Below, piece after piece: positions 1,593 through 63,400 of a stretch of 64,000 bases of DNA. The stretch's first letter is position 1; each line of letters opens with the position of its first letter. The DNA lies in contig NC_073403.1 of the NCBI RefSeq assembly GCF_028641065.1, positions 19,530,001 through 19,594,000 of the forward strand, in the 5' to 3' direction. A model generated the notes under the pieces. It had not been told where the DNA came from, did not search any database, and was given only the letters and a program-made list of their open reading frames with translations. Both the position numbers and the translations under genes were made by a program. Source of the stretch: Leucoraja erinacea (Eukaryota).

Positions 1593-1703
<111 letters not shown>

Positions 1704-11898: not shown

Positions 11899-12177
<279 letters not shown>

Positions 12178-16184: not shown

Positions 16185-17998
16185 AATGCTGCCTGGATTA
16201 GATGGTGTTAGCTACAAGAGGAGGTTTGTCAAATCTAGAGTATCAGAGGCTGAGGGGAGATCCGATAGAAGTATATAAAACTATGAGAGGCATAGATAGG
16301 TAGACAGTCAGAACCTTTTCCCCACGGAGAAATGTCAAAGACTGGAGAGCATGAGTCTAAAGTGAGAGGGCATCCATTTTTTTCAAATGGGTGGAGCTTT
16401 TTAAAAATATATACACAGAATGTGGATATATACACTGGAACACTCGCCCAGGATGGTTGTGGAGGCAGAAACGATAATGGCATTTAGGAGGCTTTTTGAT
16501 AAGCATATGCAGGGAATGGAGGGAAATGGATTCCATGCTACCAGAGGAGATTAGTTTAAACTGGCATCATGTTCAGCATGAATATTGAGCCGAAGGGCTT
16601 CCTGTGCGATATTGTTCTTTGATGCTAGGTCTCTTGAAGACCATTAAGGTGGATAAGTCCCCAAGCACGGATTGGGTCTAGGCGAGGCAAACAAGATTTC
16701 TGGGGCCTTGACAAAGATCTTTGTAGCTTCTCTAACTGCAGGCAGTCTCAGAGAACTTGAGAATACCAATGTTATTTTTCTTTGTGTAAGGTGGGAAATA
16801 GGGGTAATCCAGAAAATTATAGGGTTACAGACAATGAAGGAGATTGTCAAATGATAAAGCAGCATATGGATCAGGTACAGTTATGGGCAGAAAAGAATGG
16901 GAAATGTGTTCAAACATGAGGTGGTGCATTTTAGGGGGTCAAATGTAAGGGGCTATTGTTAATGCCTGGACCCTTAATAGTTTGGGTGACACAGTCGCAC
17001 ACCTGGTAGAGCTGATGCCTCAGTGCCAGAGAACCGGGTTTGATCCTGACCCCGGGTGCTGTCAGTGTGGAGTTGCACATTCTGGAGGAAACCTACATGG
17101 TTACAGGAAGGTGCTCCGTTTTCCTCCCACATCACAAAGATGTGCGGGTCGGTTAGTTAATTGACCTCTGTAAATTGCCCCTAGTGTGTAGCGAGTGGAT
17201 GTGAAAGTGGGTTTCTATAAAACTAGTGTAAACGATGAATGATGGGCATGGACTTAGTGGGCCGAAGGACCTGTTTCCATGCTGTCTCAAAACTAAACTA
17301 AAGCATTGATGTATTTAGGGTCCAAGTCCATAGCTCCCAGAAAGTAGCAATACAAATAGATAAGAATGGTAAAAAAAGGTATAGAGAATGCATGCCTTCG
17401 TAGGTTGGGGCATTAAGAATCAGGGTCAGGAAGTCATCTTACAGCTTTATGAAACTTTAGTTTACATTTGGAGTATTGTGTGCAATTCTGGTCACCTTGT
17501 CACAGGAAAGATATGAAGGCTTTGAAGAGGGTGCAGAATTTTTCCAGAAAGATGTCTGGATTAGAGAATATTAGCTATCAAGGACAGGCGGGACCAATCT
17601 GGATTGTTTTCCCTGGAGCGTAGGCTGGGGGAAGTTTGCTAAAGTTATGAGAGGCATAGAGTTTGGATTGAAATTCAAACCTTTTCCCCAGGGTGGAAAT
17701 ATCAAATACTAGATTTAGTATTTTGGGCGTAGCTTTAAGATGATGGGCAAAGTTTAAAGGAAATACAAGAGCCTTTTTTTAAACGACAGCTGTGGGTGCC
17801 AGAACACACTGCCACGGTGATGGTTGAAGCTAATACGACACTAGTGTTTAAAAGGCTTTTGGATTAGCACATGATAATACATGGAATAAAGAGATATGAA
17901 GCAAAGGAAGAAGGGATTAGTTAAATATGGCATCATGTTCCACATAGATATTGTGGGCCGAACGGCCTGATTATGTGCCATACGATTCTATGCTCTGT
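16185..17998 (+). mobile_element. Cluster of CR1 fragments with a nested SINE (16984-17301)
   Basis: RLRGDxIEVYK and HLEYCVQFWSP remnants with gggccgaa tails. The host sequence ggacccttaatag|cattgatg rejoins across the SINE. Confidence 0.7.
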
Positions 17999-18060
17999 AC
18001 TCTTGGTCAAATATTACATTAAATTGAACTAAACCGTTCATAATTTCTATATTATTGTTA

Positions 18061-18100
18061 TTGTAGTGAAATGAGGCACATCTGCCTCATTTCACTACAA
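18061..18100. repeat. Perfect 18-bp-arm hairpin
   Basis: ttgtagtgaaatgaggca-catc-tgcctcatttcactacaa. Confidence 0.9.
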
Positions 18101-19329
18101 AGACTACTTATTTTCTCTGCAATATCACCACCATGTGTGCCAAACCGTGCCTCATTAGCCAACATTCATGATGTTCCTGACATCTTCCCACCCTGATCAT
18201 TGATTCGAGCATCAGCAGCTCAACTTAAAAATTCCTAACTCCAAGATCAATTCCCTGTATGGGTCACATATTTCAGACTACACTCCCCTTAATCGTCCAA
18301 ACTTACAAGAAACACACATTTTTTTTAACCCTGGATATTTATGAATTCCGTTACGCAACATAATAAATAATTTCTGTTGTATCCTACCTAAAAGATCACC
18401 TTGCTTTCCTCCTATAAAAGTCCTCAAATTCTCTCTTTTACAAAGCTTTTGGTCAACTACAATTCAGCATTGCCTATTTTTTCCACATAAACTCAAATTG
18501 TCAGATTGAATGAATGCAAGTTATTATTTTGAAATTCTACGTAATTGTGTACTCTTCATCCAGCTGCAAGTTAAACTGTAAATTTAAAACACCTATACTT
18601 CAATACCAGTAGTCATTGTATGTTAACATCAAGTGTAAACCTACGCATTTGGTCCAATGTAAATACTTTTACGTTGCATTTTAAATAATTTTACAAACCT
18701 GAAGCTACAGCTTTACTCAACTGAGCAAGAACAACTTACTCGCTGTAAAATATGGAAGATACTCTCCCCAAAATACACATTACCTTCACACCAATCCACC
18801 TTTAACGAGTTTCAATACCTTTCAAGATTAAAACGATCATTCGCTTACTCTGCGACATTTGCGTTATGACTTATCCATTTGCCGGAATGTAATAGCAAAC
18901 AGAAACCAAAACGGCGTACTCAAGCTTTAACCTATCCATGGTAACCACATTAGCAGTTTACCATCCTTACTCGGATGCAGCCTCACGCTGCCAAGACACC
19001 GTATGATCAAAGATTTTAAAAACATAGAATTTAGGGATTAATATCTGCCGTCGCGTAACAGTTGTTAGATTACAGTGCCACATAAAGGATTTTTCATACA
19101 ATGAGCAACCAACAGGGCCATGATGCAACCAAGGAACTGCCAAATAGTGGCTACTCAATCTCACCTTGTGCCAGATAGCGCACTGACAACTGTAAAATGA
19201 AAGACTACATTCAGGTTGGAAGGATGACAAGGAGGACATGTGACTGCGGGCGTGTTTAGATCGGGTTAAATACAACAGGAGGGGAGCTGAAGCGTGATTC
19301 TAGTTTCTACGGTAGCACACTATTTGGCA

Positions 19330-19825
<496 letters not shown>

Positions 19826-28800: not shown

Positions 28801-29018
28801 ATGGAGCCCATCTACACGCACGGTATCCAAGTGGCTGAACGTTTGCAGCAAACTCTCGGCGGCTTTGAGAAGAGTTTGCTCTTCATGACTTGGATCGGTG
28901 ACCCGAGAGCATCTTTTTTTATTTACTTCCCTATAACGTACTTTCTCAACAGAAAGATCGGGATCTCAGTCTTGTGGATCACTGCACTTACTGAATGGTT
29001 AAACTTAGTATTTAAATC
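28801..29018 (+). CDS. G6PC3: Glucose-6-phosphatase 3 exon 1
   Basis: MEPIYTHGIQVAERLQQ...GDPRASFFIYFP...LWITALTEWLNLVFK. 218 nt, donor gtaagt. Confidence 0.95.
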
Positions 29019-30018
29019 GTAAGTTTATCTTTATTTTTTTTGGGGGGGGGGGGGGGGGGTATCTAATTTATTGTCTCCCTTCCAATCCAACCTGGACCTC
29101 GACTGTTTTCCGCATTCAGGCAAGATACGGATGGATGGTGATTGAATCGTTAAAAAAAAATACGATACAATGAACTGCAGATGCTGGTTTACAAAATTGC
29201 ATTGTTAATCTGCCTTTTTGTGCTGCAACTTTGCTTTGCTCTTATTTATTCCAAAGTAAAGGCTTTAAATATGTTGCGATGGGCAGTTTTTAGTGCTGCG
29301 GCAATTTGCTGCAGTTCTGCAAGTGCTTATGACCAGGTGACATAAGTCTGAAGAAGTATCTCAACCCAAAACGTCAACCCATTCCTTCTCTCCAGAGATA
29401 CTGCCTGTCCCGCTGAGTCACGCCAACATCTTGTGTCTATCTTCGGTTTAAACCAGCATCTGCAGTTCCTTCTTAGACATAAGTCGGTGCCTTGTTTGTT
29501 CATCGTTACCTGGTTTAGGCGAATGTTAAAGATCAAATCAAATGTTGAGTAGAAAGCTCTTCTTCCATAACAGCTTTAATGCTTTTGGAAAATGGCTGCC
29601 ATGTTGGCCTCCATAAATAACTTTATTATTTATATTTATTGAAGTTATATTTCAAAAAATAAGCACGTATAATCAAATATGTTTGTTGTAGTTGAGATAA
29701 CTAACCTAAGTCAAGGTTGAAAGGGGAAAAAATCAAGTTCAATCAAGTAAGAAGTTCTTTAAATTGTATAGTTAAAGTTAAAAATAACCATTGTTTGTAA
29801 TTATAATTCCTCTTGTGAAAAGGTTTGCTACTGTAGTTAATGCTTTGAGTAAATAAATGACTAAAGGGGTGTTGGTGGGTACATGGGAGGAACAGTTACA
29901 AGGTTGCAGGAAAATAAGGAGGGGAAATGGAATTGAGGATAGTTTTGTCGGAAGTTGGCATGAACATGATGGCCTGAATGGCCTCCTGCGTCTTAAATAT
30001 TGTTTTCTCATTATGGAA

Positions 30019-30753
30019 CAATACAATACAATACAATACAATACCATTTATTTGTCATTTGAACCTCACATGAGGTTCAAACAAAATTTGGTTCCTGCAG
30101 CCATACAAGAAAAGAACCAAGACACACACCAACACAATTTACACAAACATCCATCACAGTGAATCTCCTCCTCACTGTGATGGAAGGCAAAGTCTTGTCT
30201 CTCCCCTGCTCTCCATTCCTCTCCCGAAGTCAAAGTCAAAGCCCCCAGCGGGCGCTAGCAAGTCCGCGGCCATTTAAAGCCGCGCCGGGCGATGTAAGGC
30301 CCCGCAATTCGAGCGGGAGAAGTCGCCGTTGCCGGTGCCCCGCAAAGCGGTCTCCCACCGGGGACCCGCGCGCTCCCGGTGTCATCATCCACCGGAGTCG
30401 GGTCGCAGCCGCGCGCCACCGCAGCTCTCCATGCTCCTCACGCTCCGAAGCTGGCCAGCTCCACGATGGTAGGTCCGCAGCTCCGCCGGCTCCGTGACTT
30501 GAGCCCCCAGGTAGTTCTGTTGGACGCCACCCACGGTGCTAGGCCCCAACGACAACGGAGACCTGACAGAGAAAAAGGTCGGGTCTCTGTGCAGGGAAGA
30601 GATTTAAAAGTTTCCCCCCCCCATCCCCCACACATACACATTTAAAAGCCCACTACAAACTATACCCTCAACGGGACAAAAAACCCCAAAAAAACAGCAG
30701 ACTGCAGAGGCCGCTGCGACGTCGGTCGCGCCGCCCACCCAATGATGTGAGGA
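30019..30753 (-). mobile_element. CpG-rich non-autonomous retroelement with a (TATTG)n tail
   Basis: Minus-strand AATAAA then a (tattg)n tail. 7-bp TSD tatggaa (30012-30018 and 30754-30760). Confidence 0.65.
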
Positions 30754-31582
30754 TATGGAATATTCGGGCAACATTAGATGCTGAGCATCTGAGATGCTAC
30801 AAATACACAGCATTTAAAGTTGCCTGAATATTCGTTCCAACATTAATTTAGATCAATTAAACAAAAGCATGAGAAACTCCCTTGTTGCTATTCCCCAATG
30901 GAATAGTCTGAAGACCTCGTCTGAAGAAGAATCCCGATCCGAAATGTTGTCTGTCCATATCGTCCACAGATCCGCTGTGTTTCTCCAATACTTTGTGTAT
31001 TGCCCAGGATTCCAGCATTTTGGGTCAACTATTTTTTTAAACTGTATAGGAATGAACTGCAGATGCACATTTAAATAATGTTAAAAGTATTCTTCCAAAG
31101 ATGTGAGTAGAACCTACCATTCCTAATACAATGACACTATATAGTTCAAAATGGACAGATTTGCTGGCTAATCTCAGAAGAATAGACCAGGCGGTGTGGA
31201 GTGCTGGCCATTGAATTTAGTTGGATTCAACAATGCTTCTCTCGCGAGAGACCAAATATTGGCAAGGCCATCTGGCATATACTTATAATCTTGCCCACGA
31301 TAAATCACTGAACAATAAAGCAGGAACATCTTATCCCCAATTAAGTCCGTTAAATATTTCAAACGATTTTCTTTATTTCTGAAAACATCAAAATATAGAG
31401 AATTCACAACTCTCTCTGAAAGTAGAAAACTGCAAAGATTTCCAATAGTCTGAGGAAAGAAAATTATTTTTGGTGTTCCTGAAAGCTGGCCAAAATAAAC
31501 TGTCTGGCAAAATGAAATTTAACCTTCCAATCGATTGGAAATCAATTTTTCAACTCAATCAACTTTCTAATTTTCTTAATAG

Positions 31583-31692
31583 GATTCTGTTTGGTGAGCG
31601 TCCGTTCTGGTGGATTCATGAGTCGGGGGTCTATGATGAGCACCAGATGCCCAAGTTGAAGCAATTTTTCTGCTCCTGTGAAACTGGCCCAG
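31583..31692 (+). CDS. G6PC3: G6PC3 exon 2
   Basis: ILFGERPFWWIHESG...KQFFCSCETGP, containing the RP of phosphatase motif 1. Acceptor taatag, donor gtttgt. Confidence 0.95.
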
Positions 31693-32950
31693 GTTTGTCC
31701 CAGCAAAATGCAATGTGACTGGTTAGCTGTTTATTTTATGTCACTTCAGTGACAGATTTCACATTTATTCAGTGGAATTAAGTTTCAAATTTCTTTAATA
31801 AAATACTTTTTCCAATAAATGTCTCTACAATTTTATCTCCTGTAAGGGATGGTTTTAAATGTCACACATTGACATGATTCTCCTTCCCAAGATGAAATGG
31901 TTGCAGTAAATTCCTCAGTTTAAAAACTCATTTTGTTGAATTATTGAATTCTGAACAGACTTGAATTTAATGTTTAAACATTTTTTATTAATTAGCAACT
32001 TAGAATTGAAAAATTGCCAATCTTCTTACGTAGTGGTCAGTTTTAAGGATTGCAGTTGTTCCCTGTTCAGTTGGATGCTATTCTTGGTAACTGTCCCTCA
32101 GTTAGAAAAAAACATTGCAAATCGGCACATGGTTTGCACTTCAAAGGTATTTATTTGTCCATCCAATAGAAAGGAACTGCGACATAGAAGAATAATGGGA
32201 TACTCAGGAGAAAAGGGTTATAAAGGTTTGTGTCAGAACCAAGTGTAAGGTTATCTTTATAGCAGCCACCTATTCATTCACTTTTAAATTAGCATTTTAA
32301 CATAATTGAGTTGAAGCCTGATGCCACCCCATCAGACTCAAATTTACTGGTTACAAGAACTACAGCTGATTTTATTTTACCCACTACTACCCCCTCTCCA
32401 AGTCTCCTTTTCTATAAACCCACTGGAAGCTACAATTGCCAAATACTTCCCTGTGCTGACATCATGGATTCTGCCAGCCAGTTATCGCTATTTTACTTTG
32501 ATGTGAATAAGATCCCTGTCACCCTAACTAATTGTAGATGGTTGAATAGATAGGGAGAGGGCTGATGACATGTCTTCCACTAATGAAACTTCCTTCCATA
32601 TGTTTTCCATTGCTTCCCTCACCCACGTTGCTGCAGCGACAATGTGGCTTTTCATCAATTAATATTTTCCCCTAAGTTTTTGGCATGTTTCCTTTGCTTA
32701 TCTAATCTTGTTCCACCCCTCTCTGCTGTTACTTAATACTCTTACCCTCTACCACATACTTAACTACCGTGTTATGTTTCTCTCAGGTACCCTCTCTGTT
32801 TCTCTCTCTGTTTCTGTGCCAATTCACTTTATTCTCAGTTTCACCTTTAATCTCCATACGATCTCTTCTGAGTTTGCTCCCCATCACACTTCCTATGACT
32901 TTTCCTTGCTCCATTTACATTCCCCCTTTACCATATCACGTGGCCTCACT

Positions 32951-33218
32951 AGTTTAGTTTAGAGATACAGCATGGAAACAGGCCCACCGTGTCCCCGCCG
33001 GACAGCGATCACCTGTAGACTAGTTCTACGCACATAGGGACAATTTTTACAGAAACCAATTAACTTACAAACCTCGACATGTTTGGAATGTGAAGCACCT
33101 GGACAAAACCTACAGAAAGAACATACAAACTCCATACAGACAGCGCCTATAGTCAGGATTGAACCTGGGTCTCTGGCGCTGTAAGACAGCAACTCTACCC
33201 CTGCGCCACTGTGCCACC
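32951..33218 (-). mobile_element. HE1-like V-SINE
   Basis: Reverse complement of the same head and tail, with a (TAAAC)n end. Confidence 0.8.
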
Positions 33219-35034
33219 ACTAATGTGCTAATCATAGAAATAATGATCTCGGATTTCTTCTGTGCACCAATCTCCACCCACACCCCCTCTTCACTTCCTA
33301 ATGTCATTTCTTTCTGAGTCTTCCTTCAGAAAAAACACTCCTGCAGTTTTGCTGAGAACAATGTTTCGAACACCCTACATTTTAGCCTTGTTCAGCATTC
33401 TTCACAACATTTCTGCAAGGACTGATCTGTTCACTTCCATCTTTAATCCCGTTATCCCCGTAATAAAAAAAACAAAGTCTTTCACCCTAGCTGTCGCATC
33501 TTTATTGAAAGTTCAAAGACTGAAGAACTAAATATCTTTGGTATGCAGTTAGTTTAATCATTCAACACCTAATCTAAATGGACAACTTAATCTGTTTTTG
33601 TATCGTAATCTGCTCAATAATTACCGTTTACTATTCCAAGATCATCCCACAATAAAAAAGATAACCCTTTTCTAACTTCTTCATCTCAAACCATATCTCA
33701 CCCCACACTTCCTCATCTCCAAAGATTGTGTCTTGCCATGATTGTGAACTCGCATTTCTCCATCCTATGTTTCAACATAGACTTTCCAAATGTATCTTAT
33801 CCATTAGGTACATCTTTTTGTTCCCTCAACTTTATTCCCACCAAACTGCTCAGAATGTAACTTCCCTTCCTGGCTTGTAACCCACCTTACCTTGGTTGTT
33901 CTTCCATTTTCTGGATTCTAACTCCCACTTTGCAAATATGCCATTTTTTTCCTCGAAAGCATATAATTACACACTGTTATACCATCTCTTACTGTCCCTT
34001 TACCTCCTAGACATTTGTCAAATGTGTCCCACCTTCCCTGCAGTTACCCTTTTGAATTCAATGATTCTCTGCCAAAGCAATGAAATGGATAATCAGATTC
34101 ACAGATGATATCTCATGGAACTTAATGGAAGCATCTCCTTGAATAATTTGTCCTTCATGGAACCATGACTGTATAGGACATCCATTATTTCTTCCATGTA
34201 AACCTATCCACAGTCTTTCATACAGTTAATAAAAAACACAGGAGCAGCATTAAGCCAATTGGCCCATAAAGTCTGCCCCACCATTCGATCATGGCTGATC
34301 TATTTTTCCCTCTCACCCTATTCTCCTGCCTTCTTTTACTCTTTTACTCTTACTAATCAAGAACCGATCAATCTCCGCTTTAGAAATACCCAAGAGCGGC
34401 CTCCATAGCCATCTGTGGCAATGAATCCCTCAGATTCACCACCCTTTGGCTAAAGAAAATCTTCCTTACGTCCGTTTTAAAGGCACATTCTGTGGCTGTA
34501 CCCTCTGGTCCTGAACTCGCCAACCACTGGAAACATCCTCTCCACATTCACTCACTCTAGGCCTTTCATTATTCGGTAGGTTTCAATGAAATCCCCTATC
34601 ATCCTTCCAAACCCAGCTGCCCCATCTTCCTCAATGCCCTTTCCTATTCTGTAGCAGTCCTCTACTTTGCTCCATCTAATCTCTCCAAGAAACTTCTGTC
34701 ATAATTTATTTTCCCTGCTCCATTACATTTGTAATTCAGCAAGGATCTATCCTTGGCACTCATGCAATTCACATCCACATGTTGGTCCTCAATAACATTA
34801 TTTGAAGCATGTCAGGTCCCAGATGTACAATCCTGGAACCCACTTCTACCTCACTATCATCTCTCATGATACTCCATCTGTTTCCAATTTGTTACATTGC
34901 TTACATTCATCATCTAAGCAACCTGAAATGTCGTCTGTCCATTCTCTCCACAGATGCTGCCTGTCACACTGAGTTCCTCCAGAACTTTGTTTTTTCTTTT
35001 ACTAAATTACATACATAGCAGGGTAGAATGAACA

Positions 35035-35392
35035 AGCATTTATAAAATCATGAAAGGAATAGATCGGGTAGATACACAGAGTCTCTTCCCCCGAGTAGGT
35101 GAATCGAGGACCAGAGGACATAGGTTTAATGTGAAGGGGAAAAGAATTAATAGGAATCCGAGGGGTAACTCTTTCACACAAAGGGTAGTGGGTGTATGGA
35201 ACACGCTTCCAGAGGAGGTATGTTGAGACTGGGACCACCCCAACATTTGCAGTAAGACAGGTACATGAATAGGGCAGGTTTGGAGGGATATGGACCAAAG
35301 GCAGGCAGGTGGAACTAGTGTAGCAGGGACATGTTGGCCGGGTGTGGGCAAATTGAGCCAAAGGGCCTGTTTCCACACTATTACTCTATGAC
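35035..35392 (+). mobile_element. CR1 3' fragment
   Basis: YKIMKGIDRVD...FFTQRVVGVWNTLPEEV, then tail gggcctgtttcc...ctctatga. Confidence 0.75.
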
Positions 35393-35718
35393 GCTAACAC
35401 ACAGGTTTTATTACAATTCTCATGGAATGCATTCATTAGATTTCTTTTTACTTTGAATTAAAGTGAGTTATTCTCAGGGTGTGTGTTCAAAGCTGAAGTA
35501 CCATTATGATTAATAATATACTGTCACAATTTTATGATTGGAACAGAGAACAATACAACCCAAGAACTGACCCTTTGGCCCATGATGTCTGTGCTGATCA
35601 TGATTTCAATTTAAACTAATCAGATCTTCCTGCACATGATCCTTATCCTTCTGCGTCTTGTCTGTTCACGTGCTTGTCTAAAGGCTCCTGAATGTTACTG
35701 TCATTATACTATATTTTA

Positions 35719-36421
35719 TCTGTTACTAATGGCCCTGTCCCACTGTACGTGTTCATTCAAGAGTTCTCCCGAGTTTACCCTGCTTCGAACTTGGAGATTT
35801 ACGGTAATGGCCGCTCATAGGTACTCGGGGCTCTCGTGGACATTTTTCAACATGTTGAAAAATCTTCACGAGTCTTCCCGAGCTTACCACGTTTCCTGAG
35901 TACCTGCCATTAGCGTTACGAGCCGCTAAGAGACGTCCCAAGCTCCGACGTACCCGCTACATACATTCTACGTGCTTCCACGAGTTTGATTTTTTTAATA
36001 CTCGGGAGAGCTCTTGAATGAGCTTGTACAGTGGGACAGGCCCATTAAACTCTCATCTTGTTTGTTAGTTAGTTTGTTTGTTTGTTCCCGAAACTCCGCA
36101 AAAATGGTACACGATAGCGCAACAAATTTAGGCCCACCTTACTATTGCTCTGTGATGTGCACTAAACATGTTTCGTTCAGATTGATGTTATATTTTACAA
36201 GTTAATGACATTTTAAACTTTAATAAACGTCGCAGTCCAGCTCCCACTTGCCGGCCGAGCCTGCGCAGTTGGGGGAGGGTTGCCGTGACTCGCGTCACAA
36301 CTGGGTTCACTGGCGTCACAACCGGAGCCCATCAGCCGTGCCTGCGCAGTTGGGGGCTATGGGTGAGTGGTGGAATTTTGCGATGGGGGACGAGGACCCA
36401 ACGGGTCCACACTTGGTCTAG
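35719..36421 (+). mobile_element. Non-autonomous Helitron containing a MITE
   Basis: 3' hairpin GGACCC-AAC-GGGTCC (36394-36408), then CTAG|T at 36421. Probable A|TC 5' end at 35719. Confidence 0.7.
35730..36044. mobile_element. MITE / non-autonomous TIR DNA transposon
   Basis: About 45-bp imperfect TIRs (tggccctgtcccactgtac... / ...gtacagtgggacaggccca) at a TA/TAA-type site. Confidence 0.8.
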
Positions 36422-36593
36422 TAACAAATAAGTGTGAGATAGTGTGAAGTAACTTTGCATGTATGATTTGGTTACCGTACCTACTCCACCACTGGTTTGG
36501 CTCAGATTCAGCCTTTGAAATAAGTATTGCATCAGATTTTGAGCCTTGCAAAATAAAATATTACTGCAATTGCAATGTTTGTTTCTGCTTCAG

Positions 36594-36684
36594 GCAGTCC
36601 TTCCGGCCATGCGATGATCACGGGTGCAGCATGGTGGCTTATAATGACCAGTCTTTCCACATGCATTTTCAATCGCACTAGAAG
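36594..36684 (+). CDS. G6PC3: G6PC3 exon 3
   Basis: GSPSGHAMITGAAWWLIMTSLSTCIFNRTR with the PSGH motif. Acceptor cttcag, donor gtttgt, 91 nt. Confidence 0.95.
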
Positions 36685-39539
36685 GTTTGTGCTACTCTAA
36701 CCGTTTAAATATCAAAATGGTTAAGTAATTTTACAACATTTAAACACAATGCATACCTCACCCTATCACTGACTGCTCTCTCCTCTTCTGAATGTGCTGC
36801 ATGTTGTTTGCTTATTGTTTCAATGGGTGGATCCTGGTTACTAATCGCCTTTCAGTCTCATTACTTTCTCCAAGACAAGAGCTCTCTGGGTTATGAATGA
36901 CCTGATTTATGTAAACCTGACATTATGAAAATGCGCCCATAAATATTTTAAGGATTTTGAAATAATAAAATGTTTCATGGTATGAATTGACTGGATACAG
37001 TTCTATTCTGTTAGATAGTAATATCAGGGTGAATATTCAAGGCAATGAACCAATTATAGCAAGTGTATGTTGAATAATACAGTATGGGTTACTTTAGAAT
37101 ATGGACATATAGGACACAGAAAAATTGTCTTATGGACAATTCTCAGAATGGACCCCAGTAGAACCAGGGGATGGGCTGTACTAATTTTTAGCAAAGTCAA
37201 TTTATTAAAATTCATTTACTTTAGACTTGTGGTCTTCTCGCATCTCTGGAAGGAAGACAAATAAAAACTGCAGATGCTGGTGTCTGGAGCAAAAGTGAAA
37301 ATGCTGGAAGACGTCAGCCAGGCAAACGGCATCTGCGGAAAGAGAAACCAGTCGAAGTTTCAATGACCTTCAGGACTGAGAGACGCTGACCCGAAATGTT
37401 GGCATCCACTATCTTCAGATGCTGCTTGCCTGAGCAGATTTTTCGCCATTTCTATTTTTGTTACTATTTCTGGAAGGTTTTCGGTGTCCTTTTCCCTGGA
37501 GATATTTGTATAATTTTCTTTATTATGTCCTTATTCTCCAATATAATTTATTTTGCTTCAATCAGCAACAAACTATGTTAAAAATTGCTGTTCTCATCCT
37601 TTACATTGCCCTAATTTTCTACTTTTCCTCACTGTATCAAGACCTTTGCTGAATTCTGAAAAAATTACAAATATCAATTTAACTGCTTTTTTGGCAACAT
37701 TACAAGCTTTTTGCTTTAATCTAACATTATCTTTAGCTAATCCTTGCAGCCATATGGGATCACTTTTCCTGTTTTGTTTTTTTGCCTTACTTGCAAATTA
37801 TGTATTAATTCTTTAAAAGTCAGCCTTTATTTTTTACTGTCGTGCCTTTTAAAGTTGACTCCCAATGTACTGTAGCCAATCTGTAACTACCTTTGAGCTT
37901 TAATTGAATGTAATCATTTACAAAGCTCATATAAAATTCAGTCATAATATGACCACAATTTCCTATTTCCCCTTCACAACCATATAAGCCTTTTCTCAAT
38001 AATAATTTAAAGTAACCTGTTAAATCCCATTCTTTAATAATAGGTTTACTCCATTTTCCATTTTGCCTGTCTATTCTGAAAGTGAAGTATCTTGGAATAT
38101 TGAACTGCCAACCTTGACCACTTTGCAATCAGATCAGTGGAGGGACTGTTGGGTTTCTGTTTCTGTTTGTGCCTTCAGTGACAGGTGCCAAGGCAGGAGA
38201 ATGGGGTTAGGAGGGAGAGATAGATCATCCATGATTGAATGGCGGAGTAGACTTGAAGGGCCGAATGGCCTAATTCCACTATTCCTTATGACCTTATGAC
38301 TTTGATACTTGCAGTCTGGTAAAGTGCCTTCATTTTTTACTTTTTACCACTCTCCCTTGCCCTCACACTGTTGGAAGAATACAATTGAGTTGATGTGCAC
38401 TATTACTGTTTTTATTTCCCAATTTACTGCCTGCACTATAGCTCGGCCCTTTCCTTATAACTTTCTAACCTTCCCCTCCCCCCATCAAAACCCCCACCCC
38501 ACCATCTAGTTTAAAGGCATATTTACAACCGCAATTGTTCGATTCACCGGGAATTAGTCTTGGCCCAATTCAAGTTAGGTCCATTCCAGTAGAAAAGCTT
38601 GTTCTTTCCCTATTTCCATGCCCCATGTATTGAAACCAAATTTTCCTGCATTAAACGTTGATCTACACATTCAATTTGCTGATCTTTTTTTACCTTTTGC
38701 CAATCTTCTCGTGGTTCAGGAAGATCATTACCTTTTTAGGTCATCTTGTTAATTTAGATCCATATTGCTCATATTCCAACAGATCCTGCCTTGCCCTATC
38801 TATTGTCATATGTTTAGACCAACATTAAATCTTTCTCCGCCTATGAATTTATCTCCAGCCCTGAAGAGTCATCCTTAATCCTGGCACAATCATTAGGACA
38901 CAGGCTTGCATCTGTAGAGAACATGTTTTCCTCTGCTAACTATATTGTTCCTATTACCACTTCAACTTGAATGGTCCCATGCAATATTGTGCTGTGGCCA
39001 ATTTGCTAATTCATCTTGCCATGACTAATCTTATGCACAGCCACTGCAAAACCCCATACCTATTAGACAAGTGCAAGGGCTTAGGCTCATACAATGTTAT
39101 TTTCTAGATCGCCTTATTGCTTCACTCAAAGTCAAACTCTCCTGTGCCATGGGACTGGCCATTTCTATAGCAGTAAATGTAAGCAGGGCAACTACTTCCT
39201 GGAACGTCCCTTCTCCCCGAGGCAGCATTGAAGCTCAGACTCTGGTTCATCAACTGTGAGCCAATGTCCCCTGTATATATGATGCACTTTCTGAAGCTGC
39301 AGGTGATATTACATTGATTTCTGATAAGGACTCCAAATTATCCATTGACCCTTAATTTGTCATTGTCAGTGTAGTGTAGTCCTAAAGTTGACTCTTTACT
39401 CCTCTGCTCTCAGCTAATGTCCTCAGGCAACCCTTCTTTTGGACTTGATTTTAACACTGAATACCTAAGTGTGAGTGCCTCTTCCCAACATCATATAATT
39501 CATCAAAAGTAATATTTCTAAAAGTTTCAACCATTATAT

Positions 39540-39724
39540 AGTAGCTATATTTAAGAGGGAGTTAGATGTGGCCCTTGTGGCTAAGGGGATCAGGGGGTAT
39601 GGAGAGAAGGCAGGTACGGGATACTGAGTTGGATGATCAGCCATGATCATATTGAATGGCGGTGCAGGCTCGAAGGGCCGAATGGCCTACTCCTGCACCT
39701 AATTTCTATGTTCTATGTTTCTAT
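39540..39724 (+). mobile_element. Short, well-preserved CR1 3' end just upstream of G6PC3 exon 4
   Basis: FKRELDVALVAKGIRGYGEKAG, then the cagccatgatcatattgaatggcgg...gggccgaatggcc...(tttctatg) tail. Confidence 0.8.
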
Positions 39725-39766
39725 TAAACTATGCTAATATTAACATCATATTTTTTCTACTTTAAG

Positions 39767-39885
39767 CTCGCTGGCAAAGAACATTCCTGTAGTATTGTAC
39801 ATCGTTCTGCTGCTGGCAATCGGCATCTCCAGAATATTTATTTTGGCACATTTTCCTCATCAAGTGGTTGCTGGAATAATTACAG
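39767..39885 (+). CDS. G6PC3: G6PC3 exon 4
   Basis: [39 protein letters not shown], containing the SRxxxxxHxxxQ motif with the catalytic His. Donor gtgag, 119 nt. Confidence 0.95.
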
Positions 39886-40362
39886 GTGAGAGCATTAATT
39901 GCAAGGTGCACGATGGACCAACAGGTGAAGATTTTGTATCTGAAAAATCTGATACTAATACTTGTCATTCATTTTGATTTGAAATTCCTTCCCCATCATT
40001 CTCAAAGTGCGCAGCACGTATTCTTATGGTTGCAAACCAGCAAATATTAGGGAGCATACCTGAATCTTATACAGAAGGGTAATTAACATCAGAATATCTA
40101 CCAGTACCATTGCTAAACACAAAAATATTGTCATATCATCAGTAGACACGACCAGTGTGTAAATGTGACTTGCATCTCTCCTACTAAAGTAGTGACGCTC
40201 TGGTGCATTTTTCATTGTATTTCACACAAAGGGTGGTGAATGTATGGAATGAGCTGCCAGAAGAGGTAGTTGAGGCAGGGACTATTGCAATGTTTAAGGA
40301 TCAATTGGACAGGTACGTGGATAGGACAGGTGTGTAGGGATATAGGCCAAACACACAGACGG

Positions 40363-40393
<31 letters not shown>

Positions 40394-41408
40394 ACACACT
40401 AGCGTAGGTGAAACATGTTGATCGATGTGGGCAAGTTGGGCCAAAGGGCCTGTTTCCACGATGTGTGATAGCACCATGGCACTCGGTTGCAGAGTTTTTT
40501 ATTGATCTGGCGGAAGACTACAAAGGGAGAGCGAGCTATCTCTTTTCCCCAGTGTTCTTTTGGTTGTTCTCATGGTCATGGGCCATTCACAGGGTCGATG
40601 GCAATCCGAGCAGCAATCAAGCAAGTTATTACAGATAGATAACAAGGAAAGAAAACCTTAAGCTATATTATCTTAAAACATTTTACAGAGTGCAATATAA
40701 AGCTTAAGGCATACGTGCAAGTTTTAGGTGGAAGTGAAAATATCTTTTTTTAAATATAGTTATTATTTTTATATCTTTATATTTTGAGGTAATTGCAATC
40801 TACATGGAAATGTTTAGGATAAAAAAAATTGCTAGGTAGTAATCACAGCATAATGCAACATTTTAAAACTCAACATGGAACAATTTTGTACCTGCTCAAG
40901 ATTTTTTTTGAGTAGAACGTAAAAAGGAGAACTTTTGCAGTCATTGCAAAGTATAAATATACATTTTATCTTTTAAATTTGTTTTGGTAATTACACAGCT
41001 TTGTTGTTTTTTTAACGCTGAGTTGCTGTATTTGAGGTTTGCTTTTCGTGCTTTGTCCCTTCATGCGCTTTAGCCAACTCAGCAGGCAGCAGGAAATACA
41101 TGCAAGGCTCTGCTGACTGGTTTTCATTCCTAAACAATGTTCCATTAACCCCTTGAGTCCTCAGGGAAGGAGAGATTGGGTCACTTTTCTCTTCAGAAAC
41201 CTGGATTTTTCCAGGATCTGAGTGCAACTGAGTGAAAATGGCCGCGTAATTCAGTATCCGTGCAAAACCTGATGCATCCGAGACCAGTCTGTGATTGCCT
41301 TTGGTGTCATGCTTTTTTCAAATGTGGTATGACACTAGTCATGCTAATAATCTCCGCATGATTAAACAATCTGAACATGGATCCCATCAGTCAGATATAG
41401 CTGTGACA

Positions 41409-41732
41409 GTTTAGTTTAGAGACACCCCATGAAACAGGCCCTTCGGCCCACCGAGTCCAAACATCGATCATCCGTTCACACACTAGTTCTATGTTATCCT
41501 ACTTTCTCATCCACTCTCTGCACATTAGCGGCAATTTTTAGAGGCCAGTTATCCTATAAAGCCACATATCTTTTGGTTATGGGAGAAAACCGGAGCACTT
41601 GGGGGAAATCCACATGGGGTCCATAAAGGAAGAATGTGCAAACTCCACACAGACAGCACCCAAGGTGAATATTGAACCCGGGGTCTCTGGCTACGAGAGA
41701 CTGTGGCTCTCCAGCTGCATTACTGTGCTGCC
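41409..41732 (-). mobile_element. HE1-like V-SINE
   Basis: Same head, V-domain and tail motifs on the minus strand. Confidence 0.75.
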
Positions 41733-41889
41733 CAAAATGTGTCACCATAGCAGTTTTTTAACATGCCATTGTGGTTTCACCTGCGACCAACCATTTCAAG
41801 ATTTCCTGAATGTGAACGTTTAAAAGGATGTAAATATTCTGTGAACATGCAAGGAAATTACTTACCAATAATTCCATTTTGTATTTTAG

Positions 41890-42031
41890 GTGCTGTACTT
41901 GGTTTTCTGCTGGGCCAATACATACCCGAGAATATCAAATTCATCCAATATGTTGTGACCTCAATCTTGTTGCTGCTCAGTGGTATGTGCCTGTACTGGG
42001 GATTGCATTACTTTGGTGTAAACGTTTCTTG
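41890..42031 (+). CDS. G6PC3: G6PC3 exon 5
   Basis: GAVLGFLLGQYIPENIKFIQYVVTSILLLLSGMCLYWGLHYFGVNVSW. Acceptor ttttag, donor gtaagt, 142 nt. Confidence 0.93.
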
Positions 42032-56600: not shown

Positions 56601-58691
56601 CGTTATAGGTGGGTTCAGGGAAAGGGGGCGGGGATATGAGGGGTACAGATGATATTTGGCTCACTGTTCCTCCAACACATTGTGTTTGCTAAAGAAACCT
56701 CAATTGGTCTAACCAACCATTTTGATATAACAACTAGTATTCGTTTTCATCCAAACTTTGCAAGCAACATAAAGCCTGCCCCTTTAAATATGCGTTAATT
56801 GAATGTTGGGGTTTTTTTCTTGGGGGGTGGGGTGGGTGTATAGGGCAACATTAGTGGTTAGAGCAACATTCAAGACCTTCAAAGACACTTGTGGAAGACA
56901 AGCTGTTCCGATTACTATTGCCCGAGTGATCGATTGAAAGATACAACATAGAAACGGCCCTTTGGCCCGGTCACAACATTTCTATGTTATACCACCTTCA
57001 CAGCCACACCCTACACACTAAGGACAAGTGACAGAGGCAAATTAACCTACAAAGTCGCGAGTCTGTGGGATGGAACGTGCAAACTCCACACTGCAGCCGA
57101 GGTCGGGATCGAACCCGCGTCTCTGATGCTGTGAGGCAGCAGCTCTACCAGCTGCGCCCCCCTGCGCCCACCCCACCCAAACAAACATAAGATTATTACA
57201 ATGAAAGCTCCGAAGTGGCCGCTTTTGGCTATTGAGACATGATTGATAATTTTGTCTGTGCTAAAGCAATCACCACACTCCCATTTTGCAAATCGTGCTT
57301 TAAATAAATGCAAACCTCTGCCTTTAGTCGGCACCTCTGGTTCTCAGAGGCAGCAAGACTGCGGAAAGACGCTGGGGGGCGCGCCAACCCACATAGACAA
57401 CACGGATAGCTACAAACAACAAGTAACGGGCAAACTTTCTTGTGCATAATTGTGTCCAGTGACTTTTAAACATCACACTTTTCCTAGAATATCTTGAAAT
57501 TACTTTGGCGTATACTTTGCGATAATCGAAGTTTTGTTTTCGCACTCCAGTAAAACAAAAGGAGCCGGGGAAAGTTAAATACGTTAATATTCCACCTTTT
57601 ACGGGCAGTTTTGTCCCAGTCTGTTGCGTCTCCGTTATCTTCAGAGAGGTGAGCGGATGTCCCAGGAACGCTTGGTCGTAAAGGAGGGCAGCTAAAACTA
57701 AATTACTTAAAAATCTAAGCCAGCAGCACTGCAAGAAGAACTGAGTTACAATTCTACATTTAAATCCATTTTAATAAGAAGGATCTGCCAGAAATTCTGT
57801 GACTGAAAAATCCCGGTATGTGTTAATATGCATGTTCCGTTCGTACTGCGTCGCTATCCGCATTATTTAGCTAAAGAACAAATAAAAGTGAAATATGTAT
57901 ATATTTTGTTAAAATACACAATTCGCGACAGAGCGTCGTTCCGTTATGCAGAACTTTAGTAGGACCGTTCATTAGTTGATTCAGAAAAAAAAAATGCGCA
58001 TTGATTTTTATGAACATTTTTCAACCAGATGTTTAAAATCAGTAGAAGGTTAGAAACAGAGCATTTCATTACTTCTTTCAACGCGGCATCTTCAGGTTAC
58101 AACCGTGCAACCATTTAAAACCTAAAATTCTGAGTCCAACCAACCAACCCAAGCGGTTAAGTTTCAAGTAGAAATTATACTTCACAATCCGAATTTATGA
58201 TTTCTCAAAATGTAACCATTCCGTCTTTTGTTCCCGAATCGCGAATTCTTCTCGAATTAACCACCGCCGGACTAGTTAATTTGCAAGTCTTGTTACATGA
58301 AACGTTTTGTAGCCGAGTACATTCCACTAAGATATCCTTTAAGATCAACTTTATTCTTTGGAAAAAAATGGGAGTTGGTCCGCAGGCTGATTTTATACAG
58401 ATGTTAGTGGGTGTTTTCAGCGCTGTTTGCCAACAGAATACTCCCACTCATTAGAGGGAATGTGGCCCAATCATTTCTGAGCTTCCCCAGGATGTGGGCC
58501 CTGACTTGGATCTTGAAAGCTAAAACCCCCACGAAACCAGTGAAAGATAGAAAGAGGAATTAAGGACCGCTGGGAGTAAAGTTGCTAAGCACATCTGTAA
58601 GTTTGTTTATTTTTGCAAATTCACAATTTCTGTTTACAGTCTCTTTTCACTGCTCGCTGACGCCAACCTTCGAGGCTTGGTTGAACACAAT

Positions 58692-59165
58692 ATGCAAGAG
58701 GATTCCAATTCTCCGTTTTCTCCAGTGGATAGTTCAAGCAACAGCGAGGGGGAACAGGACACGCAGCAGAAGAGAAATGGCAGGAAGAGGCGTTCGGGCC
58801 AAAGGTCTCATAGACCCAGTACCGGGAAGAAAGGCATGAAGATCTCTCCTCTGGCGCAGAGCTTAGAGGACATTCAGACCCAGAGAGTCGTGGCTAACGT
58901 GAGAGAGCGTCAGAGGACGCAGTCCCTCAATGATGCATTTGCAACTCTTCGCAAAATCATTCCCACTTTGCCTTCAGATAAACTCAGTAAAATCCAGATC
59001 CTTAAACTGGCCACGAGGTATATCGACTTCCTTTACCAAGTTCTGCAGAACGACGAGATGGATAGCAAGGTAACGAGCTGCAGTTATCTGTCACACGAGA
59101 GACTCAGTTATGCCTTTTCAGTTTGGAGGATGGAAGAATCCTGGCCTTTGTCTGCCGGCCCTTAG
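58692..59165 (+). CDS. twist: Twist-family bHLH transcription factor (twist-related protein 2/3-like; paralogue identity uncertain)
   Basis: N-terminal [17 protein letters not shown] motif, basic RKRR, b[58 protein letters not shown], and WR/Twist box [14 protein letters not shown]. 157 aa in one coding exon. Confidence 0.96.
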
Positions 59166-59182
59166 CGTCTGCTGTCAATCAG

Positions 59183-59994
59183 GTAAATATGTAGCACTCG
59201 GTGCCGAGATGTTTTCAAAATAGCCCCGTTGTTTCCACTATATAACCGAAACAGGCAGCTGTTCGGAAAGATAGTGACATGTGTAACCCGTGCCATGTAG
59301 AAGAGGTTAAATAAATACCTAACAATAATGAGCTCTTTTCATCTCAATTTCAAGCGTTCCCAGATGATGCCGACCTCATGCTGTTTAGTTACTCTTTCAC
59401 TTTTCCAATGTCCCCTTCAAACCTGTATTTTCCTTCTTACTTTTACTTTTAAGTAACATTTATCCCCCCCCCCCCGTGTTTCATTTCCTTCGCACCCCGT
59501 CTTATGTACAAAAGGGGCTTTGAAGGGTCAAGATATGGAACCCATCAGTGGCCGCAGCCTCCCTTGCCCCGGCTATTTATTGAGTCTGAATCCAGAGCGT
59601 GAAAGAAAGTTTAAGTCAACAGTGAAAGTTTCCAGTCCCCATTGGTGTCTCGTATCCCAAATCTTGGGAAACGTTAATCGTATTCTAATCTACACACTCA
59701 TCCCGGTACTCACAACGCTCTCTCTACACAACAAACACATTTCCCTGATTCTCAATAACATGATCACCCTCAAAGGTATTTTGAAAAAAAACATGCGTGT
59801 TGTTGTACCCAAGCAATCGTCGGCTGTTGCTTTGCATACCTCGTGTATAAACAAAACATCCGCTTTCGCCTTTATTACTACCGAGGCCTGGGACACCTCA
59901 AAAGTGCCAGACACGGGGCTGGAAAGCTGTTATTTACTTCAGATATTTTATTATTTGTTCAATCATTCCTATCATTTTCTCTCTTGAACTGTAG
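59183..59994 (+). other. Probable intron in the Twist 3' UTR
   Basis: Donor CAG|gtaaat 17 nt after the stop codon. Candidate acceptor cattttctctcttgaactgtag| at 59994. Vertebrate Twist genes have an intron just after the stop. The acceptor is inferred. Confidence 0.6.
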
Positions 59995-60394
59995 GTATAT
60001 TGATTAGCTACGTGGGAACTCTACGCCAGCGCATCAAGAACATTTTAAAGATGAACTGAGTGTAAATCAAAAGACAAGAGCACTTAAATACTGGGCTGCG
60101 GATGTGGGTACAGCTAGAATGATACCGAGAGACCCAGCAACATTGGTCCGTGGATTCCATATCTATTTATTTGCATGTGTCTGCAAGGCTTCAATCCCAC
60201 CGTATATCGGGTGGCGAGACTGAGAAATCGTTTTGATTAACAAGGAAGAAAACAAAGAGACATAAACTCAGAAGTTTAGAATATTATTTTTTTATATTTT
60301 AATTGGAAACCGAACTTTATTTCTGAAGAATGAGCTCCGAATTTCGTCGACCGTCTTGTTACTTTAAGGAAAGCTATATGGCGTTATGTTTTGT

Positions 60395-60400
60395 AATAAA
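60395..60400 (+). terminator. Candidate polyadenylation signal of the Twist gene
   Basis: AATAAA after an AU-rich segment, with a U-rich tract downstream. Confidence 0.4.
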
Positions 60401-63400
60401 CGCACACACATTGCGTCCATTTTATTTCTGTTTTATATTATGCATCGAATTTTGGAGACTCTGCGCTCCCTGTGGGGCAGTGGGGGCCTTTAGCAGTTAA
60501 ACAAAAAAAAAAACAAAACCTCATGCAGATAAGCTTTGAGAGAAATAACGTTTCTATATGTTTTACGTGATGATCCCTTCAAATAACCCACACGGTTATC
60601 AGACTTATCGAGTTGCATCTCCACAAAGAGCAGTCCCCGAGGTTTTAAATGTTTAAAAGTTCCACTCCCAATGAATCTGAAGATTCCGACATTTAGAACC
60701 ACTCCCCCTTCAAAATAAAAACAAAAACAATTGGGATTAGTGATTCAAGATCTGAAAATAATCCCACTTTTCGTAAAACGACACAGGTAGAATGGCGAGA
60801 GTTTAATTATTATACATCGTCTATGAATTTCATCCCCAAACTCAGCCCATGACCAATGTACAGGTTTTATCTACAGTACGCGGCAAGTATAGGCTCGACT
60901 TTGCCAGAAATCCCATTTACCAACACGCCGTTATGTTAAAGCTTTGCTGAGTGCTTTACCAAAATCTATTTCTTCTCTAAGTGGCCCCTTTCTCACAGAC
61001 GATGGGTTATGAGTGAGAAATAACGGTGGCGAGTTCCTAGTGCAGGTGTAGAGGGATTTGATGTTGGTTCCCGTGAGGACGCGTGACAAGAAGAGGAATT
61101 CATCCAACACAAAAGTTTCAACCTCAATCATATGGTTTGCTATCAATAATAAAAACAGAAGGAGAGAGAAAGGTCGCAGTTTATAAAACGATGCTGTTGC
61201 ACCCGTCCGCTGTCAACAAACCAACCTGGATTTAGCACTGAATTCAATGCAGTGTTAAAAATGCAGATTTAATTGGTTCCAAAAATTGCAATTTCTCTCA
61301 AATGTTTGCATTGTGCTCTAAAGTTTAGTCACGAGTGATTTTAAATTGTGACGTATTTACCTTTTTAACAGAAAATTCAAATTTGCTTTTAATTTTCTTA
61401 TAACTTGAAATAAGCGTAAAATAAAAATGGAACAGTGCTTTCAAAAGATCGCAGCAGTGTATTGGTTATTTAATGCGCAGTCTACGGTTCCTGCTCCTAA
61501 TACTTTGTAAATGTGGGTTAAATAAAGCTGTAATGGTTGCATTTAATACAGGAGAACACTTATAATACAAACCTAACTATTGTTCATCAGCTCACTTCCT
61601 TGCCGCAATAATATTGTGTGACAGAACTCTATTATAGAGATGATTCTGGAGATCAGAGTGGACCTTTGGTGCAGTGCTGCTAATAAATTGTCCCACTTCT
61701 GACAACAGCGAATGTTCTGTTTCCAGCTGGTTCTTGTAAGATGGGGAAGGCTTAAAATCCCCAGTCGACACCTGGGGCGGGTTCGTTTCCTCCATCTGAC
61801 CCCCTTTGTGTAATTCCAGTTTCCCTGCTCTGTAGCAGTGCAAAACACACTGCAAACACACAGGACCTCACTCACTCACACCGAGGTCTCAAAACACACT
61901 TGCTGACCAACTAAGTTCAACATAGCCTCGCTCCTTCCCCCCTCCCCCCTCACCCACCCCCAGGTTTCAGAGTACATCATAACATGTGCATCCAATGTAT
62001 GTTTCATGTCTCCGAAATCATACACTGAAACCACAAACTAAAACGAGTCCTTTACTTTCCTCTTGATTTATTGGATTTGATTTATTTATCTGATCAATAT
62101 CAAAATCACCCAGCCAAAAGTCACCAAAACTCCACTGCAAGGACACTGGGTTGTTTATTCCAACTTTTGGGATAACGAGAATACATATTACCTCAAACGC
62201 AAGGCTTCTGAACCTTTCCTTCCACCATGTACCTGTCTCATGGCAAGTGCAAAGAGCTTTCGAATCCTCTGTTGTGATTTACAACCATGCGGCTGATCGC
62301 GTGGAGTCCGATTCTATTATTTAAAATGTAACGAAATAGCAAAGGAGCAATTTTGTTTTTACACAGAGAGTGTGGTGGGGCCCTGAACGCATTGCAGGGA
62401 GGGGATGGTGGAGGCAGATGCGACAGTAATGGTTAAGAGGCTTTTAGATAGGCACATGGATGTGCGGGGAACGGAAGGATATGGACCATGTGCAGGTAGA
62501 TGAGATCAGTTGTTATCATGTTCGGCACAAACATAGTGGGCCGAAGGGCCCGTTCCTCTGCTGTACTGATCTAAGTTTTATGTTTAATAGTCAAATATAG
62601 GTCGTGCAGTGATTTAATTAAAAAAAAAAAAAGAGAGTAGGTAACAGAATGGAAAGACAAGTGCGATTGACAACTTTTTCTTGGAAGGATGAGGATGCAA
62701 AAAGTTTAGCTACTGAAGGAGGAGAGATAAGACAGTGAAGATGGACACAACTTTCTGGAGCATCTCAGCGGGTCAGGCAGCATCTACGGAGAAAAGGAAT
62801 AGGTGACGCTTCGGACAGTCTGAAGGGTCTCGACCCAGAAACGTCACCTACTCATTTCTCTCCATAGATGCTGCCTGGCCCGTCGAGTTACTCCAGCATT
62901 CTGTGTCTATCTTCAGTGTAAACCAGGGCATATCTCTTAAAGTAAGGCCCAGGATGACTTCTGAAAGACTAGTATTTGCAGTACCCACCCCCGAGAAATA
63001 GGAAGCCCGCAGGTAGATTATGTTTTCAGGGTTAGTGCTGGAGGCAGATACGACAGTGGCATTTAAGATGCCTTTAGATAGGCACATGGATATGCAGGAA
63101 ATGGAGAGGTATGGTTCACATGCAGGCAGAGGTGATTAGTTTAACTTGGCAACACGTATGGCACAGCCATTGGGGGCCGAAGGGCCTGTTGCTGTGCTGT
63201 TCTATATTCATCGGGAGATGATCTGTAATCCTCGCCTTCAGCAAACGAGGCGAGTCCGATGTGAGAGTGCGGGACATCCATCCTTGCAAGGTCAGGGTGA
63301 ATGGGGGTGATGCTGGAGGAAAGGTCGGCTCTGGGTCGAGAGATCACGGCCACGGTAAATATCGTGGATAATGAGGCGAGGAAGTCTGGGCGAGGTAGGA

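Follow-up and report, generated by a model that had tools for sequence, protein, structure and literature searches.

A Twist gene linked to LSM12, G6PC3 and a class IIa HDAC gene in the little skate: a candidate fourth ohnologue of the vertebrate Twist family

Twist genes govern the development of neural-crest ectomesenchyme, skull and limbs, and Twist proteins bind E-boxes with E-protein partners and hold Runx in check by means of the Twist box. The literature counts three ancestral Twist genes in vertebrates. The present analysis concerns a Twist gene in a stretch of 64,000 nucleotides of the little skate Leucoraja erinacea, i.e., positions 19,530,001 to 19,594,000 of the forward strand of NC_073403.1 (assembly GCF_028641065.1). 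This whole stretch is called the window, and the gene is called C27 Twist after its contig. In the hagfish genome paper, Supplementary Table 9 assigns twist1 to alpha1, twist2 to alpha2 and twist3 to beta2, and has «-» for beta1 (PMC10972751). The source data of the same paper contain 18 Twist rows, 8 of them from bony vertebrates, and none is beta1; HDAC5 and LSM12 are classed as beta1, and the gene numbers of Xenopus lsm12 and hdac5 differ by two. According to these data twist3 adjoins HDAC7 in gar, Xenopus and chicken. HDAC7, TWIST3 and SLC48A1 are listed together in chicken (PMC4592986), and zebrafish twist3 adjoins an hdac7a-related sequence (PMC3426487). The sequence-only reading of the window had placed fish and bird twist3 near HDAC7, which is borne out: twist3 of bony vertebrates is tied to HDAC7 and SLC48A1 and not to G6PC3 and HDAC5.

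C27 Twist very probably occupies the fourth ohnologous position (beta1, HoxB side) of the two rounds of vertebrate genome duplication (2R). We also favour, with less assurance, the view that it is the beta1 copy itself, with an unconverted coding history and a basic helix-loop-helix (bHLH) region that resembles twist3 by convergence or long-branch attraction. The earlier proposal of a Twist-class IIa HDAC pair quadruplicated in 2R, of which this would be the HDAC5-linked member, is thus supported, the published beta1 slot being empty. The features of the gene and its partner are the following:

Window 58692..59165, + strand: Twist open reading frame (ORF), 157 amino acids, protein P0001, intact, stop-free translation
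Window 58464..59182, + strand: Twist exon 1 as spanned by transcript contigs (run X1; run X4 from 58530)
Window 59183..59994, + strand: Twist intron, 812 nucleotides, GT..AG, just past the stop codon, skipped in spliced contigs
Window 59995..61446, + strand: Twist exon 2, 3' untranslated region (UTR), from transcript contigs, with AATAAA at 61420
Window 57000..61000, no strand: CpG-rich domain over the Twist gene, observed/expected 0.71-0.94 vs. 0.47 for the whole window
C27:19,622,896-19,725,711 (right of the window), − strand: class IIa HDAC gene, likely HDAC5, from homology search

HDAC5 was to be looked for to the right of the window, and a class IIa HDAC gene was found there on the opposite strand, tail-to-tail with Twist, with about 34 kb from stop to stop. 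It is likely HDAC5, as judged by exclusion, by published classes and names, by characteristic residues, and by exon scores. In one catalytic exon the score is 69 bits for HDAC4 vs. 49.8 for HDAC7, in a second one 69.1 vs. 65.6, and the MEF2-binding exon is nearer HDAC9 than HDAC4.

Searches of the skate genome with P0001 (13 matches, 65 candidates) and with coelacanth twist3 (38 matches, 63 candidates) lead to the same three Twist-level loci, on contigs C27, C2 and C7. Searches for class IIa HDAC genes lead to the same contigs (other HDAC loci are also listed), and Hox9 matches are found on these three contigs only, with no fourth Hox9 in the genome search. Each Twist reads on the + strand and has its class IIa HDAC downstream, in − orientation. 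The C7 HDAC is almost letter-for-letter human HDAC4 in the Gln-rich exon, and C7 carries skate Twist2. The HDAC9-linked place of Twist1 is filled by the C2 gene, so C27 Twist lacks the linkage of a Twist1 orthologue. C27 carries LSM12, G6PC3, the class IIa HDAC, HROB, TMEM106 and Hox9, i.e., the beta1 markers of a HoxB-type position; TMEM106 paralogues on C2, C27 and C40 and HROB on C27 fit the paralogon.

Two comparisons with other species are counted as decisive. (i) The bamboo-shark orthologue of C27 Twist, chiPu_0013898, has the locus tag next to Chipu0013899, the bamboo-shark HDAC classed as beta1. (ii) In sea lamprey, the Twist gene LOC103091686 and LSM12 are 6.3 kb apart on chr19; the linkage thus predates the split of jawed and jawless vertebrates (the beta1 class and the lamprey positions are from PMC10972751). 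It is therefore found across species and is older than the duplications.

C27 Twist appears restricted to cartilaginous fishes. The 90% cluster of P0001 has 20 members, and the 14 named among the 15 listed are all from sharks, rays or chimaera. No bony-vertebrate protein of this type occurs in the best 120 of 1,217 or the best 120 of 1,153 matches. The loss, predicted at least for mammals, seems wider, extending to all bony vertebrates examined. C27 Twist is 96.8% identical to its chimaera orthologue, against 91.9% for skate Twist1 and 88.8% for Twist2 with theirs, and its stem branch is about 0.6 changes per column (46-row tree, see below). A long stem followed by near-fixation suggests a distinct, selected role.

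In the immediate neighbourhood, two further genes were delimited:

Window 1593..19609, − strand: LSM12, from the AD-domain exon to the ATG at 19609; may extend left of 1593
Window 28801..50150, + strand: glucose-6-phosphatase family gene, from first to last coding exon

LSM12 has matches to the LSM12_LSM and AD domains in two exons. The second gene has PAP2 matches in two exons (one below the cut-off) and a last exon matching human G6PC1 (E 7.8e-19) with its stop at 50150; we take it to be G6PC3 rather than G6PC1 or G6PC2. Its stop lies 8,542 bp from the Twist ATG. The order LSM12(−), G6PC3(+), Twist(+), with Twist about 8.5 kb downstream, was thus correctly read. The label agrees with the skate annotation, which names a G6pc3 model (PMC10115646); the G6pc paper says nothing on G6PC3 synteny. 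ORF fragments resembling retroelements, presumably of the long interspersed nuclear element (LINE) type, lie at window 21663-22121 and 47742-48395.

Farther along C27, HROB is at C27:24600313-24600819, about 4.9 Mb from the HDAC5-like gene. In human HROB adjoins HDAC5, and the distance marks a rearrangement 5' of HDAC5. The Hox9 activation domain at C27:5299353-5299782 is split over two reading frames, which is a frameshift or an assembly error in a HoxB9-type gene. Immediately upstream of Twist1 there are two other bHLH genes (C2:95426835-95427053 and C2:95451806-95452042), upstream of Twist2 one (C7:47353293-47353523), and upstream of C27 Twist none. They are probably FERD3L-like; if so, the FERD3L paralogue beside Twist2 would be another retained ohnologue.

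P0001 is a Twist-type bHLH protein: Pfam HLH is found at residues 64-114 (E 1.9e-18), and the best PDB match is the bHLH of human TWIST1 (E 2.5e-31, vs. 1.4e-13 for TAL1). With the stop-free translation, these matches confirm the intact ORF of the sequence-only reading. The protein has a 12-residue N-terminal motif bearing the Twist1-type Asn, basic stretches like nuclear localization signals, the bHLH and the WR/Twist box, whose 14-residue core is intact and whose C-terminal tail is altered. The gene layout is also that of the Twist family, i.e., whole ORF in exon 1, an intron in the 3' UTR, and transcription. According to the transcript contigs exon 1 comprises 5' UTR, ORF and 17 nucleotides of 3' UTR; its start at 58464 is the edge of an X1 contig and may not be the true transcript start. 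Spliced contigs come from 2 of 4 runs (X1 and X4, two studies) and reach 61446 and 61350. Since they skip the intron, the transcript is real. A donor-like GGTACG within 30 nucleotides of the stop is also present at the two other skate Twist loci. The 3' UTR is devoid of the full AU-rich element described for Twist1 (PMC13554066). Among the raw reads of runs X21 (6% read) and X24 (1% read), with tissues unspecified, none falls on the Twist ORF.

X1 and X4 also give low-depth contig pieces at window 57500-58498, upstream of the Twist exon. They may stem from upstream or antisense transcription or from read-through of G6PC3, and this could account for fused gene models. The little-skate model «G6pc3» carries both HLH and PAP2 domains (PMC10115646). 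Between anterior and posterior pectoral fin its log2 fold change is −2.28; the two named Twist models have the same sign (−4.8 and −2.8), and Lsm12 is at +1.0. This suggests that C27 Twist is fused into the G6pc3 model and expressed in fin mesenchyme, the counts mixing two genes. It must be noticed that this skate dataset is not counted as independent of the genome analyzed here. In atlas searches the paralogues were not named.

The gene is easily missed, because of four circumstances: (i) orthologues are called «twist-related protein 2-like» in databases, the very label foreseen for automatic annotation; (ii) G6pc3 and HLH are merged in one model; (iii) the bamboo-shark model (P0005) has a wrong C-terminus; (iv) this orthologue is absent from the published Twist family (source data of PMC10972751). 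The catshark orthologue ABY76997 (P0235) and ABY76996 (P0406), a lamprey Twist of the LSM12-linked cluster, have adjacent accessions, so that the C27 Twist orthologue may have been used before simply as «twist». In the literature consulted no description of a fourth or HDAC5-linked Twist was found, and 12 of the 24 whale-shark files, when searched, gave no match; Gitelman 2007, Yeo 2009 or the supplements of genome papers may cover shark Twists. Twist is not named in the main text of PMC10115646, and its tables, in the portions available, name two Twist models.

Several results weigh against C27 Twist as a plain beta1 copy, and the trees come first. In the full-length tree of 46 rows (one chimeric Sphenodon model dropped) it is sister to twist3, with support 93/80, unstarred. 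The dropped tuatara model, P0292, has the N-terminus of a twist3 and a C-terminus of Twist1 type and is probably mis-assembled. With 15 more long or redundant rows dropped, the 31-row tree is unresolved and nests C27 Twist weakly in Twist1 (21/36). The two parts of the protein were also analyzed separately. With the 54 N-terminal columns it joins Twist1 (91/91, unstarred); this support comes from these 54 columns only, and the split point was chosen after the alignment had been viewed. The 107 C-terminal columns (bHLH-WR) place it in a starred clade with twist3 (100/98), and with invertebrate outgroups and a site-mixture model the same grouping obtains 99/95 and 99/96. Thus the twist3 clade is starred for bHLH-WR, 93/80 or absent at full length and absent for the N-terminus, and the tree formerly called for gives Twist1 affinity in the N-terminus and nesting with twist3 in the rest. 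The lamprey Twist beside LSM12 has a long branch and was not placed with C27 Twist.

The other adverse points are the following. (i) The skate has three Twist genes: each has the predicted class IIa HDAC partner, but the fourth pair is missing, and three genes were part of what the sequence-only reading regarded as refuting it. This count is expected if the beta losses were reciprocal. (ii) All four Twist genes were found together in no genome. (iii) The twist3 slot of the skate is not fully assembled, so the loss of twist3 is not proven. (iv) The identity of the C27 HDAC as HDAC5 is likely and not certain. (v) Comparison of C27 with 200-kb stretches of C2 and C7, which include only the 3' parts of the HDAC genes, gave no paralogous non-coding elements. 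(vi) An earlier, different pairing of the paralogons persists in a table of the skate paper (PMC10115646), although Lamb 2021 corrects that scheme, HDAC5 pairing with HDAC9 and HDAC4 with HDAC7 (PMC8040251); the available portion of the Lamb supplement has no Twist row. The trees cannot prove the beta1 reading and partly argue against a pure history; it is the position that carries the case, and the bamboo-shark and lamprey synteny outweighs the three-gene count and the bHLH-WR clade.

The discord of the two halves (Twist1 91/91 vs. twist3 100/98, or 99/95 with outgroups) is what a mosaic gene predicts, i.e., a gene in the beta1 slot that had its bHLH-WR segment made uniform with twist3, through gene conversion or homoeologous exchange in stem gnathostomes that had not yet undergone the reciprocal losses. 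A short pre-bHLH motif common to C27 Twist and coelacanth twist3 also fits, and the whole ORF in one exon is an easy conversion tract. In approximately unbiased (AU) tests, nevertheless, both groupings survive in each half (p 0.18 and 0.22), and for the outgroup set Twist1 sisterhood has p 0.12. Across tests p for Twist1 as sister is 0.12-0.36; in the reduced full-length set, Twist1, twist3 and Twist2 groupings obtain 0.36, 0.38 and 0.07, respectively. Columns exclusive to one paralogue are few (4 for Twist1, 4 for twist3, 3 for Twist2). Two of the states common to twist3 are frequent elsewhere (D in 38/123, ED in 58/123; mostly invertebrate Twists by look; 123 of 148 Twist representatives were parsed). 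C27 Twist and twist3 are both long-stemmed, and post-1R (first round) rediploidization is reported as mostly ancestral. A mosaic origin is thus rather unlikely, and still the best placed of the alternatives to an unconverted beta1 copy.

QILKLA, which had been put forward as a signature shared with twist3, is not diagnostic. It is limited to ray-finned twist3 and C27 Twist, and as a general twist3 signature it was rejected, since 54 of 54 tallied twist3 of lobe-fin/tetrapod type have QTLKL. The published residue that marks Twist1 against Twist2 is Asn in Twist1 (PMC4996418). It is present in 17/17 orthologues of C27 Twist and in 0/150 proteins of twist3 type (39 of these 150 without motif match). 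Over the whole protein, P0001 is 73.9%, 70.7% and 65.6% identical to coelacanth Twist1, Twist2 and twist3, respectively.

The beta2 region bears on a second alternative, according to which chondrichthyans have their genuine twist3 in C27 Twist, and in one of the two lineages the gene, with or without its HDAC, was transferred to the HDAC5 side, gnathostomes never having had more than three Twists. The beta2 paralogon is C40, where 400 kb without gaps hold VDR(−), TMEM106(+) and a fibrillar collagen gene(−). This VDR-TMEM106C-COL2A1 stretch gave a single hit to HDAC or Twist queries, at E 0.049, which is not regarded as real; the same queries light up C7, which serves as a positive control. On the 3' side of VDR there is a PRY-SPRY exon in repeat-rich DNA, and a Pfam scan of 150 of the 596 candidate ORFs there shows neither HDAC nor HLH. 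SLC48A1 is on the 66-kb scaffold C1651 (60 of 66 kb read), which runs into a CA repeat of at least 36 kb and probably belongs to the beta2 chromosome, without having been placed on it. Beside SLC48A1 this scaffold also holds a gene that we take to be SP1-like. Three loci of the XendoU/ENDOU family were seen, on C19, C22 and C32, and none on C40. With VDR on C40, SLC48A1 on C1651 and C27 Twist elsewhere, the HDAC7/SLC48A1/VDR linkage of twist3 is not that of C27 Twist.

Neither HDAC7 nor twist3 was found in the skate genome, in which the beta2 slot is incompletely assembled; this suggests reciprocal loss. No HDAC7 was found in four chondrichthyan genomes (PMC6539745). In elasmobranchs the HoxC region belongs to the X chromosome, which is often fragmented (10.1101/2025.02.26.637739); this limits all claims of absence. 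It is in this setting that cartilaginous fishes seem in turn devoid of the twist3-HDAC7 pair.

A relocated twist3 would agree with the three Twist genes of the skate, with the place of C27 Twist in or beside twist3 in the bHLH trees, and with the twist3 profile, for which no named chondrichthyan is in the best 120 of 1,883 matches (nine unnamed ones, inspected, resemble tetrapod or sturgeon twist3). It would require, however, that the gene landed precisely in the paralogous slot and in the matching orientation. The link of Twist to LSM12 already exists in lamprey, the neighbouring shark HDAC is classed as beta1 with bony HDAC5, the C27 HDAC exons score nearer HDAC4 than HDAC7 (69 vs. 49.8; 69.1 vs. 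65.6 bits), and the Twist1-type Asn is present. This alternative is therefore very improbable, and the third Twist of sharks is likely not the same gene as twist3 of fish, frogs and birds. That C27 Twist arose as a Twist1 duplicate confined to chondrichthyans (retrocopy or segmental copy) and landed beside G6PC3 is hardly credible, for in spite of the Twist1-type N-terminus and the weak nesting at 21/36, the 3' UTR intron is kept, no tree groups C27 Twist with chondrichthyan Twist1, identity to skate Twist1 is only 68%, the position is the expected ohnologous one, and the lamprey linkage comes close to refuting it.

For the beta1 copy, the following course of events may be proposed. An ancestral LSM12...Twist-HDAC block would have been quadruplicated into Twist1-HDAC9 (alpha1), C27 Twist-HDAC5 (beta1), Twist2-HDAC4 (alpha2) and twist3-HDAC7 (beta2). 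The two beta Twists, fast-evolving and partly redundant, would then have been lost reciprocally: bony vertebrates would have dropped the beta1 Twist and kept HDAC5, and cartilaginous fishes would have dropped the beta2 Twist together with HDAC7. Twist may remain chained to HDAC because its enhancers are in the HDAC gene, here probably in or around HDAC5; TWIST1 enhancers reportedly lie in the HDAC9 locus. By analogy with its relatives, C27 Twist would be a bHLH factor dimerising with E proteins, binding E-boxes and acting in mesenchyme (fin, head, sclerotome). The altered C-terminal tail and 3' UTR hint, at the sequence level, at altered partners and mRNA control. Its twist3-like bHLH half would reflect convergence or long-branch attraction between the beta copies. 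Beta segments evolve faster (PMC10115646), i.e., a setting where two beta copies attract each other in trees. A broader scenario, which builds on four ancestral HDAC-chained Twists and their reciprocal loss, is possible but doubtful, namely that the C27 copy (a «twist4») diverged in its DNA- and Runx-binding regions, froze, and now patterns fin and skeletal mesenchyme. It would bear on the differing ways in which the two lineages build a skeleton, and gene conversion between the beta copies may have taken part.

If the beta1 reading is true, C27 Twist fills the empty beta1 cell and completes the Twist quartet. The equal counts of three Twists in sharks and bony fish are then hidden paralogy, which matters for any comparison of Twist expression between sharks and fish, and the gene is a testable case of reciprocal loss between copies of the beta subgenomes.

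Among the closest known systems is Twist1 (HDAC9-linked, alpha1 of chordate linkage group B, CLGB). Like C27 Twist it has two exons with the ORF in exon 1, an N-terminal NSE motif and a tail-to-tail class IIa HDAC; it is the predicted 2R sister and the coelacanth paralogue with the highest identity (73.9%). C27 Twist differs from it by a separate locus (the skate has its own Twist1 on C2, 68% identical), the want of a full AU-rich element and the altered tail. With twist3 (HDAC7-linked, CLGB beta2) it shares the bHLH-WR grouping and the ED, NDAF and YL states. However, its neighbours are G6PC3, LSM12 and HDAC5 instead of SLC48A1, HDAC7 and VDR, its N-terminal site is Asn where twist3 has Thr, Ala or Val, and the identity to coelacanth twist3 is the lowest (65.6%). 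Twist2/Dermo1 (HDAC4-linked, alpha2) is of similar length and lends its name to the database label, whereas skate Twist2 neighbours the HDAC4-like gene of C7 and the Twist2 grouping is the worst (AU p 0.07). Finally, wnt6b and cspg5, among 68 differential ohnologue cases, were retained by chondrichthyans but not by bony fish, with hidden paralogy as proposed here (PMC10115646); unlike these, the Twist loss appears reciprocal and involves a core regulator of neural crest and mesenchyme. Retained shark ohnologues are a known class, and C27 Twist would be the one that completes the Twist family.
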